From contig OX597822.1 of NCBI GenBank assembly GCA_951406725.2, positions 64,294,001 through 64,358,000 of the forward strand: a stretch of 64,000 bases of DNA, written 5' to 3'. The stretch's first letter is position 1. Every line of letters starts with the position of its first letter. Shown here one piece after another: positions 9,618 to 64,000 of this stretch. The notes under the pieces are model-generated. The model worked only from the letters and a program-made list of their open reading frames with translations. It had not been told where the DNA came from and searched no databases. Both the position numbers and the translations under genes were made by a program. This DNA is from Octopus vulgaris (Eukaryota).

Positions 9618-10083
<466 letters not shown>

Positions 10084-11554
10084 TATTTCTTTTAAATTGC
10101 CATAAAGGCATTACACAGAGGGGGCACTACAACACTCGTGGGACATATAACAATTAAAAATAAAATATGTTATAATGAATGAACATGAAAATGCACATGA
10201 AGAACAAATTAAAATATGATAATATGAATGATATCTGAAAATGATATTATGAAGAGTGTGCTACTCACCTCACACTGAGTAACACAACTCGCTGCCTCTG
10301 GGTCCTGAGTCCTTTTTCTCTTTTCGTCCAATCCTTTTTTCCTTTTCACTGTCACTTAATGATAACATTCTCTCCGTCATGCATTCATAACCTTTTTCAC
10401 CGGGAGTGGGGTCTTCTAAATTTTGTGGTGTCTGTTCTTTCTTTTTCTTTTTTTTTCTTGAGGGGAAATGGGGTGGGTGTGTTTGGTGTCTGTATGGGGA
10501 GGGTGGGTCTGAGTGGTCTTGGATGGGATGGGGTTGGACTGGGGTGCCACATCATACTCAGTGTCTTTTCTTTTTTTCCTCTTTCTCCTTTTGCGCTCTG
10601 CAATTTTCCATTCTTCCTCTTTTTTATCGTTTCCTTCGTCTGTTTTGTCTTCCTCTCTTTTCTCTTCTGTCTCTGCAACTATATCCTCAGCCGTAGTCCT
10701 TCGTAGAGGGCAGTATGCTCTAATGTGGCCCTTTTGGCCACATTTAAAACAACGTGGTACTCTGCCCTCTACCCACACCCTCAGCACGATTTCCCCCAGC
10801 GTCACAGTCTCTGCCAAGTTCTCGAGTTGTCCCTCCTCCGTCTGAATAATTAACTCGAGCGTCCTTCCTTTCCACCCTCCTTCTTCTGTTTCTGTGGCTT
10901 GGAGGACAGCCACCTTTTCCTCGCTTCCAACAAGGACAGCTGCCGCTACCCAAGCCACATTTATATCAGGCGGAATTCCTTCTACCCTTATCTTGGAAGT
11001 CCTTCTTCCAAGATACGTGGGTAGAAGGACCATTTCCTTCGTCTTTACCGTTTTGCCCGCCAGCCTCCTTGCCTCCTCCTCTGTTCTGAACTGGACTACC
11101 ATTGTCCCATATTGGCATCCTCTTGTCATGTATATTACTCCGTTGGATTCCTCCTTTACTGCCTTTTCTATTTTCTCTATTTCAATTAGGTCGATCTTCT
11201 TACTCTTTATCGAGTAAACTTTGTATATGACCGTTCTTTTTATGCCATCCATTATTCTTTGTGGCAGTGACAACGTCACGTTGCCGCCCACTTTCTGCAC
11301 CATTTTTCTATGCTCCTTCATTCTTGATAAATCCACCTCTTTTCTCTTCACCTCCACAGCTTCTGCGAAACTCTTCATGTTCTTCAAATATTCATCCATG
11401 CATTCTACTGCTCTCAGCAGCTCCTCCTCTGCAGAAGACAGCTCAGACTCGCTAAGGTCCGAGTACATTACTAACCTCAAAGCAGCAAAAGGAAAAACGT
11501 CCGACTCGCATACAAACGACAAACCAAATGCACTATGGGTAACCGGAAGCAAGC
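10084..11554 (-). mobile_element. ~1.47-kb non-autonomous L1/Tx1-type non-LTR element (ORF1 only) inserted in the SINE-A head
   Basis: TSD 10067-10083 / 11555-11571 (1 mismatch); 5' end GCTTGCTTCCGGTT..TCGGACGTTTT; 3' tail CCCCCTCTGTGTAATGCCTTTATGGCAATTTAAAAGAAATAA; no RT. Confidence 0.85.
10416..11468 (-). CDS. Gag-like ORF1 nucleic-acid-binding protein, 350 aa, single CCHC zinc knuckle (CFKCGQKGHIRAYC)
   Basis: Uninterrupted ORF from the first ATG inside the element (MYSDLSESE); CX2CX4HX4C, basic WKIAERKRRKRK motif; homologous to the ORF at 63363. Confidence 0.85.
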   Translation of the reverse strand: MYSDLSESELSSAEEELLRAVECMDEYLKNMKSFAEAVEVKRKEVDLSRMKEHRKMVQKVGGNVTLSLPQRIMDGIKRTVIYKVYSIKSKKIDLIEIEKIEKAVKEESNGVIYMTRGCQYGTMVVQFRTEEEARRLAGKTVKTKEMVLLPTYLGRRTSKIRVEGIPPDINVAWVAAAVLVGSEEKVAVLQATETEEGGWKGRTLELIIQTEEGQLENLAETVTLGEIVLRVWVEGRVPRCFKCGQKGHIRAYCPLRRTTAEDIVAETEEKREEDKTDEGNDKKEEEWKIAERKRRKRKKRKDTEYDVAPQSNPIPSKTTQTHPPHTDTKHTHPISPQEKKRKRKNRHHKI

Positions 11555-11596
11555 TGGTTAGCAAGCTACTTACCACACAGCCACTCCTAGGCCTAT
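11555..11596 (-). mobile_element. SINE-A 5' head fragment
   Basis: Reverse complement ATAGGCCTAGGAGTGGCTGTGTGGTAAGTAGCTTGCTAACCA. Confidence 0.85.
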
Positions 11597-38553: not shown

Positions 38554-39876
38554 TGAGTGAAGTAAAGAATATAGATAGGAAAATACGCAAGCTGCTGAGT
38601 TGTAATAGGATGCACCACCCAAAGGCAGACGTAGATCGCCTTTACCTTCCCAGACCCAAGGAGGTCGAGGCCTGATCCAATTTGAACTAGCTTACAAAAC
38701 AACCACAATTGGACTGGCCAAATATCTCGAAATATCGAATGACTGGATTGCTAAAGCTCGTGGAAAATCACGAGAGACGAAAGAAGCTTCATTCTATTAT
38801 AAAGGAAAGCAAAAAATTTGCTATTGATCTCGTGCAGGATACCCAAACTGAACAACCCGAGGGAAGTACGGCAACTATTGTTGCAAAGAAGGTGAAAATG
38901 ATGGCAACGAAAAAAGCGCACGAGCAATTGGCTGATAGGTGGGAGGAGAAACCTCTGCACGGCAAATATGTGGCCCGCAGCAAACAAGCTGATGTTGACC
39001 AGAAGCAAACCCATCAGTGGCTACGGAGCTCAGGGCTAAAAGCAGAGAGCGAAGGTTTCATCCTGGCTGCTCAAGATCAAAGCCTATTAACCCGGAACTA
39101 CCAGGCCAATGTGATGAAAAATGGAGCAGACCCAAAATGCCGATTCTGCAACGACATGATTGAAACAGTGGACCACCTAATCTCTGGATGTAAAGTCTTA
39201 GCACCAGTGGAGTATAAATTAAGACATGACAGAGTTGGCCAATATCTCCACTGGCTAATAAGTCGGCATTACAATATCAAAACTGCCGACAAGTGGTATA
39301 ATCACCACCCTGAGGCTGTAACTGAAGGAGAAAATGTAACCATTCTGTGGGACTTTCCAGTACATACAGACCGAACCATCAAGGCCAATAAACCAGATAT
39401 TGTTGTGAAAGACCAAAACAATAAAGTTTGCTTATTGATCGACATGAGCATCCCCTGTGATCATAATATCTCAGCGAAAGAGTTTGACAAGCTCAGAAAA
39501 TATAAAGACCTACTCATTGAAATTGAGAAAATGTGGCATCTCAAGGCGGTTACAATACCAGTGATCGTAGGAGCACTAGGAATGATCAAGAAGGGAACCG
39601 AAAATTATATGAGAATGATCCCTGGCTTACCATCCCTGCAAGAAGTGCAAAAGATTGTCTTAACTGGTACATCACACGTATTGACAAGAGCATTGTCGAT
39701 GTGAGAACTGTTGCTGCTCATGTATTTTAATTTAACTTGGAAAAAAAAAAAAATGAATGAACTATTGAGTTTGGTTTAATGGCCTACCAATGTATACTAT
39801 GAGTTTCTTTGCCCTAGGAGTCGGGAAGACACTCGGCAAGAAATGGAAGCAAATTTGAAAGAAGAAAAAAAAAAAG
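38553..39876 (+). mobile_element. R4/Dong-like retrotransposon, 5'-truncated (post-RT region, CCHC finger, RLE, 3' UTR)
   Basis: HPKADVDRLYLP../GGRGL (frameshifted); CRFC..ETVDHLISGC, RHDRV, KPDIVV..LIDMSIP..KLRKYKDL; stop at 39704; (TAA)n on both sides. Confidence 0.9.
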
Positions 39877-51025: not shown

Positions 51026-51405
51026 ATTGAGCAGAGTGATGGGCCTAAAGTTATCTATAATGTCCCCCTTGTTTGGATCTTTCTTCAGCAGCGTTACATC
51101 TCCTCGACTCACAAAGCCGGGTATGCTCCTGTTTTGCTGCCAGTTGCAGTATACCGCTGCCAAGACGTCTCAAAACAGGTCTGGCATACAATTGTAAAAC
51201 TCGTAGGGCAGACCATCCAGCCCCGGCGATGTGTCACTCGAGCATCCTGCCATCGCGTCCCTCACTTCCGCTGCCGTGATGGTACCTTCGCAGCACTCTG
51301 CCTCTCCTGCCGAGAGTTGTGGCAGGCTGTGCAGGTAGACACTGAAGTTCACCCTGCGTTCACGCTCGCCACTCGTCCTGTACAGTCGGACAAAATGCCG
51401 CTGAA
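51026..51405 (-). pseudogene. L1/Tx1-type ORF2 fragment (pre-RT and RT domain start)
   Basis: EGTITAAEVRDAM..SPGLDGLPYEFY..DLF*DVLAAVY..VTLLKKDPNKGDIIDNFRPITLLN; one in-frame stop. Confidence 0.85.
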
Positions 51406-62535: not shown

Positions 62536-62567
62536 TGCAGGAGTGGTTGTGTGGTAAGTAGCTTGCT
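62536..62567 (+). mobile_element. SINE-A head (host of tandem insertions)
   Basis: GCAGGAGTGGTTGTGTGGTAAGTAGCTTGCT. Confidence 0.85.
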
Positions 62568-62791
62568 CTGGCACCAGGTAAGTGTGGCCGGATCAAGAAG
62601 TAAAGGTTCTACCCAGATGGCTGGGATCCGTGCCCTACTGTATAATACCAAATTTTAAAAACTTTATATTGTAAATATTATATATATTTTATTGTAATCA
62701 CCAACGTTTTAAGCTACTACACCCTATATGTTTGTCTGTAATTGTATGTCCCCTCTATGTAACGCCTTAATGGCGAATCTTTCATGAAATA
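62568..62791 (+). mobile_element. 5'-truncated Tx1-like 3' end, TSD AAGTAGCTTGCT
   Basis: TSD 62556-62567 / 62792-62803; tail TGTCCCCTCTATGTAACGCCTTAATGGCGAATC..GAAATA. Confidence 0.8.
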
Positions 62792-62807
62792 AAGTAGCTT
62801 GCTAACC

Positions 62808-64000
62808 TCTGAACTGTTCGGACGTGTTTTTTTTGCTGCTCCAGATGAACGTTGTTTCAACGTGAATTGTTGAACTTTCGACTCGACTAAAGGTAGGAAT
62901 TTTGTATTTTTGCGAGCGAAGTGAAGTTTTATTACTTGCATGAATGTTTTTTAGCATTTAATATTTTTTAGCAAATAATAAGGCTCCACTTTGCTCCGGA
63001 TATAATTTTTCTGCCTGTGTCGAGTGAAAAGAAATTGTATTTTTGAAGCGGCATAGTCCGTCTGAAAAAATTATTGTTGAAATTGTCGTTGTGTTGTCCA
63101 CAGATTACCAAGGATTATTTACCAAGGGTTTTACCAACAGTGCATTTGGCCTGGATTACAATTTTTGGCCGAAGAAGTGGAAAAAAAAAGAACTGAATTC
63201 CTTTGTCTGAATTGAACTCTCTTTCTCTGTCTATTATTTATTTGTAAAAACTTTTTTGAACTGCCATTTTTAATTTTATTTCTTCCCTTCTGTTGCATTT
63301 TTTTCATTCTCCTTTCTGTGGCTAATTTTAGTTTATCATTTTGAACTGTTGTATTTTACGTTATGGCAAAGGCAAAGAATTTCACTGTGTGGGAATTAAC
63401 ACCTCCCAAAAAATATTTGCACGAACTCGAGGAAAAGACCGTGGTGTTGAGGACATATTCAAAGTCACTCGACACCATAATGGTTTTTCCGAGAGACACC
63501 ATTGTGAACGAGCTGGTAGACTATATGCCAGCCGTTAAACATATTCAACGGGGAGTCAAATACGCAACGGTATGGTTGCTATTTGACTCCGCTGAAGCAG
63601 CTTGCAAATTTGCAAGCCAGCCCATTGAGGGCGATGAGATTCTGTTTCTCCCCAGTTACAAGGGGGGAAAATTGTTACGTTTATGGGTCTGTGGCCTGCC
63701 GCCCGGCTTTGAGCCCGAGTGGGTGGAAGATTCCATCCGCCGGGGTCTGAGCGGTGGTAGCGCCAAGATCCTGAATGTGAAAATGCAGCCTGCGGCTAAC
63801 TGGGAAGGAGGAAAGGCTACTTTGACTCTGTGGACCCAGTCGGCCAAGAATCTGGTTTTGCCGGACTTCCTGAAGATGGCCGGGTCCAAGTATCCGGTGA
63901 TGCTAGAGGGACGCGCCCTCAAGTGTCACCTGTGTTCGGAGACCGGCCACATTAAGAAGAAATGCCTCAGGGACCAAAGTAGGATCCTGGAGAAGTTGAT
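62808..64000 (+). mobile_element. 5' part of a second L1/Tx1-type element at the same target (runs off the window)
   Basis: Starts right after AAGTAGCTTGCTAACC; 5' motif TCGGACGTGTTTTTTTGCTGCT shared with the 10084-11554 element; ORF1 downstream. Confidence 0.8.
63363..64000 (+). CDS. Gag-like ORF1 (partial, open to the window end) with CCHC knuckle CHLCSETGHIKKKC
   Basis: Manual translation MAKAKNFTVWEL..EKTVVLRTYSK..RGVKYATVWLLFDSAEAA..LFLPSYKG..GLPPG..LEGRALKCHLC.. with no stops; aligns with the 10416-11468 protein; absent from the ORF track because there is no stop. Confidence 0.85.
   Translation, partial: MAKAKNFTVWELTPPKKYLHELEEKTVVLRTYSKSLDTIMVFPRDTIVNELVDYMPAVKHIQRGVKYATVWLLFDSAEAACKFASQPIEGDEILFLPSYKGGKLLRLWVCGLPPGFEPEWVEDSIRRGLSGGSAKILNVKMQPAANWEGGKATLTLWTQSAKNLVLPDFLKMAGSKYPVMLEGRALKCHLCSETGHIKKKCLRDQSRILEKL

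Follow-up and report, generated by a model that had tools for sequence, protein, structure and literature searches.

Our analysis covers a window of 64,000 nucleotides, C9:64294001-64358000, within the 2.8-Gb genome of Octopus vulgaris (Table 1). Working downstream from the head of the host SINE, we see a first insert, a regenerated copy of the target and then a second insert, each of them at the place given in an earlier note on this DNA. Insert 1 consists of the last ORF2 codons (...SGTR), a stop at 62579-62581, a 3' UTR, the hairpin CGCC-TTAAT-GGCG and the end GAAATA. Insert 2 carries on past the edge of the window: about 290 bp of 3' UTR lie behind its ORF1, the element ends at C9:64358850 as ...GGCAAATTAAATGAAATA, a further AAGTAGCTTGCTAACC follows, and the remainder of the host SINE resumes at C9:64358867 (AACCACATGGTTCC). 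The closing target and resumed SINE, put forward in that note as the test of its reading, are both present; the ORF2 it expected downstream is absent, the ORF1 giving way to 3' UTR, tail and target. We can also rule out that insert 2 is an LTR retrotransposon, as tail, target and SINE remainder close the element with no pol; with no LTR/pol organisation downstream, the non-LTR nature proposed earlier stands. Insert 2 is a complete ORF1-only element of 2.04 kb; it has a single 5' UTR monomer, whereas other units of its family (B) carry two or three in tandem, units of the family measuring 2.06, 2.26 and 2.46 kb.

Table 1. Features of the window and of further arrays (window positions unless a contig is named)
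Feature	Position	Strand	Remarks
Host SINE head, 5' part	62537..62555	+	runs to the insertion point, between GGT and AAG; A-box-like TGGTTGTGTGG
Target copy before insert 1	62556..62567	+	AAGTAGCTTGCT, 11-12 bp, final T ambiguous
Insert 1	62568..62791	+	224 bp; 5'-truncated 3' end of autonomous element A1
Junction between inserts	62792..62807	+	target copy AAGTAGCTTGCTAACC; with upstream tail makes AATAAA
Insert 2 (family B), head	62808..62849	+	TCGGACGTGTTTTTTTTGCTGCT at 62818-62840; putative promoter role
Insert 2, 5' UTR monomer	62850..63041	+	about 200 bp, one copy
Insert 2, ORF1	63363..64000	+	ATG at 63363; 399 aa; stop side beyond window at C9:64358562; sole ORF of element
Second ORF1-only element (family W)	10084..11571	-	1488 bp including 5' target copy; same SINE site
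Array	C1:223.69-223.71 Mb		seven E units before A2
Array	C5:78.74-78.76 Mb		six E before C
Array	C10:101.17-101.19 Mb		nine mixed units
Cluster	C7:13.46-13.50 Mb		about 40 kb, at least 12 units

The family W element encodes an ORF1 of 350 amino acids (11468-10416, minus strand; hereafter the 10416 protein), and its two target copies differ, the 5' copy having A at position +13 and the 3' copy (10068-10083) having T. Across the window the target 16-mer is matched nine times with up to two mismatches, against 0.05 matches expected. The host SINE itself gave no tRNA match with ARAGORN or Rfam; its box-like motifs, among them the ‘A-box-like’ TGGTTGTGTGG, were picked out by eye against the A/B-box consensus. 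Octopus tRNA-derived SINEs have been named (PMC4758252), and the portion of that source available to us gave no name matching the host SINE. Two further stretches of the window resemble non-LTR retrotransposons: a reverse transcriptase fragment at 51027-51316 (minus strand), with 71–73% DNA identity to the autonomous A1–A3 elements, and an open frame of 337 codons at 38691-39704 (plus strand) that by eye resembles the C-terminal part of a different non-LTR ORF.

Insert 1 differs at a single position in 224 bp from a full-length, 5.7-kb, two-ORF copy of A1 (locus L056), the intact ORF2 of which encodes 1133 amino acids with Exo_endo_phos (an APE-type endonuclease), RVT_1 and zf-RVT domains. The best solved relative of this protein is human L1 ORF2p (E = 8e-66) and its closest named relative is an ORF2 from Argonauta (64%). 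A second autonomous family, A2 (5.45 kb), occupies the identical SINE site. We place both in the L1/Tx1 group, where architecture and site preference make membership of Tx1 likely (their homologues carry no clade names); an A1-type endonuclease and reverse transcriptase likely moves all of the ORF1-only families found at the site.

The ORF1 of insert 2 and the 10416 protein are homologous but strongly diverged, as the earlier note had it, with 44 of 177 residues identical (25%; E = 9e-18). A similar level of identity (24–25% over about 200 amino acids; tblastn) links the ORF1s of ORF1-only elements to that of their autonomous partner, and the former split deeply into two groups, both distinct from the autonomous ORF1, with core identities of 23–29% and about 40%. 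Between ORF1-only families, dN/dS for the ORF1 core lies between 0.11 and 0.27 in all five pairs compared, and the protein has therefore been maintained. The predicted model for the insert 2 ORF1 has two successive RRMs, a CCHC knuckle and then, after a disordered basic linker, a folded domain of about 90 amino acids at the C-terminus, for which an alpha/beta fold is predicted (pLDDT 80). Searching the PDB with this domain gave no Foldseek match at E ≤ 0.001 and, at best, a Z-score of 4.3 with VIA, which is no clear match, and it is likewise without a usable Atlas hit or a Pfam or NCBIfam family; from this neither absence nor novelty follows.

Every named ORF1 relative that we looked up is from an octopod. 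Several (P0194, P0197, P0217, P0228 and P0122) carry host-protein annotations in octopod proteomes, likely a mis-annotation of these elements. The ORF1-only families are mosaic, their breakpoints lying behind the knuckle and about 150 nt short of the end. Heads have apparently been swapped between ORF1 bodies, and internal deletion has left head-plus-tail mini-elements (e.g. a 106-bp unit at L077), SINE-like derivatives of ORF1-only families. In most of the young ORF1s of family E (L156-L163, L172, L027) single-base indels are seen in homopolymer tracts, and one such indel turns up repeatedly at a single G run; they may reflect errors of assembly or genuine breaks/slippage. On their sequences, insert 2 and the family W element are best described as HAL1-like rather than as HAL1: each encodes ORF1 only, with homology to the ORF1 of the partner and a shared 3' end.

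Relatives of these elements converge on one base of the SINE. All 20 of the insert 1 relatives fetched end there, as do insert 2 relatives at 19 of 20 loci (the ending being unclear at the exception, L031) and 30 of 30 for family E; that several old lineages share one target, as the earlier note supposed, is borne out. Counted as exact patterns, 61,686 targets are empty and 565 tail-target-SINE junctions are filled, or about 0.9%. We considered, and rejected, the idea that targets with the A variant are favoured, filled sites comprising 236 A and 329 T against 30,452 A and 31,234 T among empty ones. From the 200 junctions listed we took 85, following chromosome order (the first 45 of A-type and the first 40 of T-type), and parsed 83: 39 close full ORF1-only elements, 10 ORF1-only elements with an unclear 5' end, 14 near-full and 7 truncated autonomous elements, and 13 short units. 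Another unit stands in front in 5 of the 83. The units examined have heads of 25 types in all.

What these units share is the 3' end. A hairpin of four pairs, with compensatory changes, is found in nearly all of 44 aligned tails, 40 of which had been pre-filtered by a loose hairpin pattern; an unfiltered listing shows the same motif. It is 93.8% paired with 8 compensatory cells, and exceeds 500 of 500 shuffles on three of five measures, as well as all slid controls; the two remaining measures are not above the shuffles, a control that related sequences can in any case exceed. Tails end in RAAATA, such that an AATAAA forms with the first A of the target, and carry no poly(A).

The heads are more varied. 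The sequence TCGGACGTKTTTT occurs twice in the window (at 62818, plus strand, and 11492-11504, minus strand; 0.06 expected), confirming that both 5' UTRs carry the motif, which follows the leader by about 10 nt in insert 2 and by about 53 nt in the family W element. By a loose pattern, used with no shuffled control, its CGGACGT/T-run core is present in 9 of the 25 head types; the starts of the two commonest ORF1-only families, C and E, are without it. A universal CGGACGT motif can thus be rejected, a further 9 of 25 head types having a GCGCATG-type word near the start instead, and the CGGACGT head is one of at least two alternative designs. A TTCCGG word is seen in a few heads. The GCGCATG and TTCCGG words resemble NRF1 and ETS sites, and CRE is a further label applied to the head motifs. 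The CGGACGT/T-run word, common to A1 and several ORF1-only heads, is plausibly a downstream promoter element; that its T-run might double as the downstream U-rich element for the poly(A) signal of the upstream unit is speculation.

The earlier note treated the 16-bp repeat as a target site duplication. That the target is re-created holds; its last 5–8 bases appear to travel with the element, so that the repeat is not wholly a duplication. The A/T base at +13 tracked the family rather than the target in all 12 informative cases: all six insertions of four young A-leader head types into T targets show A in front, and all six insertions of the D head into A targets show T. Across 68 full-length terminal units (four more were left unparsed in the A/T tally) the 5' and 3' copies disagree at this base 13 times, and the first mismatches between copies gather at positions 9–11 (28 of 68). 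Comparing 12 truncated units with their 3' copies, six match over 7, 7, 8, 8, 10 and 17 bp and six over only 0–2 bp. Given this family-following base, the clustering of mismatches and the matches of truncated units, the last 5–8 bases of the 5' copy are likely the element's own leader, transcription starting within the duplicated target; in the junction between our two inserts these bases (GCTAACC) would belong to insert 2. The true duplication would then be about 7–11 bp. Saying this, in some arrays B-type heads have a T leader, such that the leader is not fixed per family and the 5' copy is best viewed as a join, at a variable point, of local and element sequence.

Because each insertion re-creates a near-complete target, further units could simply land there by chance, which is how the earlier note accounted for tandem arrays. 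Stacking at a re-created target does occur, with precedents in R1 arrays with a 14-bp duplication (PMC3414825) and tandem SINEU-3 (PMC4494074), as far as the accessible parts of these papers go. With about 0.9% of exact targets filled, regeneration alone nonetheless predicts few stacks, and an equally low rate for all families, although effective occupancy would be higher if few SINE copies were accessible. That expectation fits the C/A2/F-type tails used as a control, of which 4 in 100 (the first 100 of 416) are stacked. It does not fit family E, where 37 of 40 copies have a non-SINE unit behind them and three have the SINE (by locus, 20 of 23 are stacked); a difference from the control at p = 9e-26 (Fisher; 3e-16 by locus). 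The E probe (421 bp) was context-neutral, and the 40 copies scored were the best of 227 candidates, two of the ten weakest being solo. Units with a B head also depart from it, another unit preceding 5 of 21 (p = 5e-5 against 2%), and A1 tails are intermediate (5 of 20 stacked). This family asymmetry largely refutes regeneration as a sole cause, and we regard chance re-use of the site as a very improbable account of the arrays.

The families at this site behave in two ways. ‘Pioneers’ (C and A2) almost always have the SINE remainder behind them; ‘followers’ (E and B2, and more weakly A1 and B) have another element there. Amongst 26 related units with a B-type N-terminus, found with the 5' half of insert 2 and not independent, those with an E-type C-terminal half are stacked in 7 of 8 cases against 5 of 18 for those with a B-type half (p = 0.009). 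Family H, the ORF1 C-terminus of which is unrelated, is stacked in the four copies seen (all reached via E arrays); together with the 5 of 20 for A1, this means that one domain cannot be the sole cause, and other routes to an occupied-site bias exist.

A search with an internal-junction pattern gave 186 matches; 100 of them were listed, and of these we read about 75 as genuine internal junctions and 25 as SINE remainders that have mutated. The arrays lie within SINEs at interstitial places, and four are entered in Table 1. In the C7 cluster (C7:13452001-13502000; L164-L168) many old and young families are stacked in one SINE, making it a candidate silencing (piRNA-type) cluster or, alternatively, a candidate locus of origin of leader variants. 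An E-like unit (L207; C1:223714666-223715300, plus strand) lies about 6 kb away from the seven-unit array, in the opposite orientation, and has a head of no assigned class behind it.

How the units of an array came together can be read in part from the junctions. Where the downstream junction has the TTTG variant, the upstream unit repeats it in 14 of 20 pairs, compared with 2 of 29 where it does not; these repeats include five cases across families. Over all junction variants, 23 of 38 pairs agree and 15 are discordant (two pairs were skipped, and pairs within one array are not independent). When 26 E units are set in a tree, the upstream units of three arrays belong to derived clades and the downstream units are more basal. 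Taken together, the TTTG repeats and the tree favour separate, later insertions at the front junction; arrays thus likely grow by serial insertion at the SINE-head end, judging from these sequence patterns. Of the two inserts at the window locus, insert 1 is likely the later arrival: it differs from its nearest copy at 1 of 224 positions and insert 2 by about 2%, an age gap that is not significant on 224 bp. A truncated A1 stub standing before a full-length B unit is in keeping with this order, short of proof. Contigs of four runs cover the element in pieces, with starts, ends and insertion order at the locus staying beyond them.

An array might instead arise in one event, the reverse transcriptase leaving a full-length pioneer RNA for a follower RNA, the 3' read-through of which pairs with the cDNA end. 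Such template jumping would explain the intact heads on units downstream of E at 19 of 20 loci (L207 being left unclassified), the RNAs would have target sequence at both ends, the mosaic elements themselves suggest template switching, and jumps in vivo are reported for R2 (PMC3414825, in the part accessible to us). A single event would not, however, be expected to yield an upstream unit that copies the local junction variant across families, nor the array in which E units of different clades lie in age order, and we think this route unlikely.

Local duplication is a further source of length. Near-identical neighbours (units 1/2 and 4/5 of C1_2236; units 3/5 and 4/6 in the alternating pattern of the C5 array), together with a distance of 0.75% within arrays against 1.59% between them, are what unequal crossing-over or retrotransposed read-through dimers would leave behind, and local copying or duplication does lengthen arrays. 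Neither process can explain how, at 20 loci, the first E came to stand before units of type C, A2, H or F. The C units behind E are of different subtypes, and some E units (C5_787_1, C10_1011_2) have their closest relatives on other chromosomes and not beside them. That the arrays stem mainly from crossing-over or dimers is distinctly unlikely, although such events likely add to their length in any case.

Our preferred reading, which we hold to be probable, is that ORF1-only elements and a LINE stub sit at one SINE base, using borrowed LINE enzymes, and that some families prefer occupied front junctions. In this model, the partner endonuclease would nick between GGT and AAGTAGC; the tail hairpin would recruit the reverse transcriptase in trans; and RNA reading a few bases into the target would pair with the primer strand, giving exact 3' ends. 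Transcription would start inside the duplicated target, with promoter elements just downstream. Followers would then arrive later and in separate events, as the junction variants and the E tree suggest, inserting at the front junction of a resident full-length element such that the array grows towards the SINE head. The least certain step is what brings them there: the front junction may be an open promoter, to which the C-terminal half of the follower ORF1, or its RNA, steers the particle; an idea we regard as possible, if somewhat less than even. More tentative still, and on balance doubtful, is the proposal that family E and the chimeras are ‘parasites of parasites’, their ORF1 C-terminal domain redirecting a borrowed LINE endonuclease/reverse transcriptase from 61,000 empty targets to resident promoter junctions, and so building one-directional, interstitial, HeT-A-like arrays. 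If true, a non-enzymatic protein acting in cis would set target choice on top of endonuclease specificity.

Several known systems offer comparisons, drawn here from the accessible parts of the papers cited. Tx1-clade elements target other transposons: Xenopus Tx1L inserts in Tx1D, and crocodilian Tx1-Mar and SINEU-3 in Mariner-N4_AMi (PMC4494074). As in those systems, a LINE of the APE type prefers one site within another repeat, its non-autonomous dependants use that site too, and tandem insertions sandwich a target duplication. Unlike them, the octopus target is one base in a SINE head of which there are over 61,000 exact copies, its dependants are ORF1-coding elements of 1.5–2.5 kb rather than SINEs, and stacking is strongly family-specific. 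HAL1 (half-L1) elements, for which Bao and Jurka 2010 is cited, are non-autonomous L1 derivatives that code for ORF1p only (PMC5753468). The octopus elements likewise have ORF1 only, keep it under purifying selection and likely depend on the ORF2 of a partner, but differ in being site-specific, in their two deep ORF1 lineages and extra C-terminal domain, and in the modular exchange of heads, ORF1 halves and tails.

Tandem arrays of R1, with interspersed R2/R1 SIDEs, are described in Drosophila 28S rDNA (PMC3414825). The octopus arrays are similarly head-to-tail, with target duplications between units and autonomous and non-autonomous units mixed; in contrast, they are dispersed over many chromosomes, about 99% of targets are empty, and a family that prefers occupied sites has no R1 counterpart reported in the part of that paper available to us. 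In the telomeric HeT-A/TART arrays of Drosophila, Gag does the targeting (PMC5537684), and an ORF1(Gag)-only element forms polar, head-to-tail arrays beside a partner that codes for reverse transcriptase, as here; the octopus arrays are, however, interstitial and probably endonuclease-dependent, and ORF1-directed targeting is for them hypothetical (the association of 7/8 against 5/18). A 2026 repeat annotation of Octopus vulgaris gives 13 recently active L1-Tx1 families, and its main text, as available to us, does not use the word ‘target’ (PMC13282606). In a literature search that lay outside Repbase, Dfam and subscription journals, any of which may already contain these families, we found no publication describing SINE-targeting Tx1 or ORF1-only elements from cephalopods, nor one on a preference for occupied sites.

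Stacking itself is known; the surprising part is the family-specific preference for occupied sites. Where a site-specific LINE inserts is usually attributed to its endonuclease. At this SINE base, a difference of about twenty-fold in the use of occupied over empty copies separates families that likely have a single enzyme and cut site in common, and natural chimeras point to the C-terminal half of ORF1, or its RNA, as a candidate determinant. This bears on what ORF1 does in targeting, and on why ORF1-only elements retain an ORF1 at all; the system as a whole being a dated record of a guild of elements in one niche.
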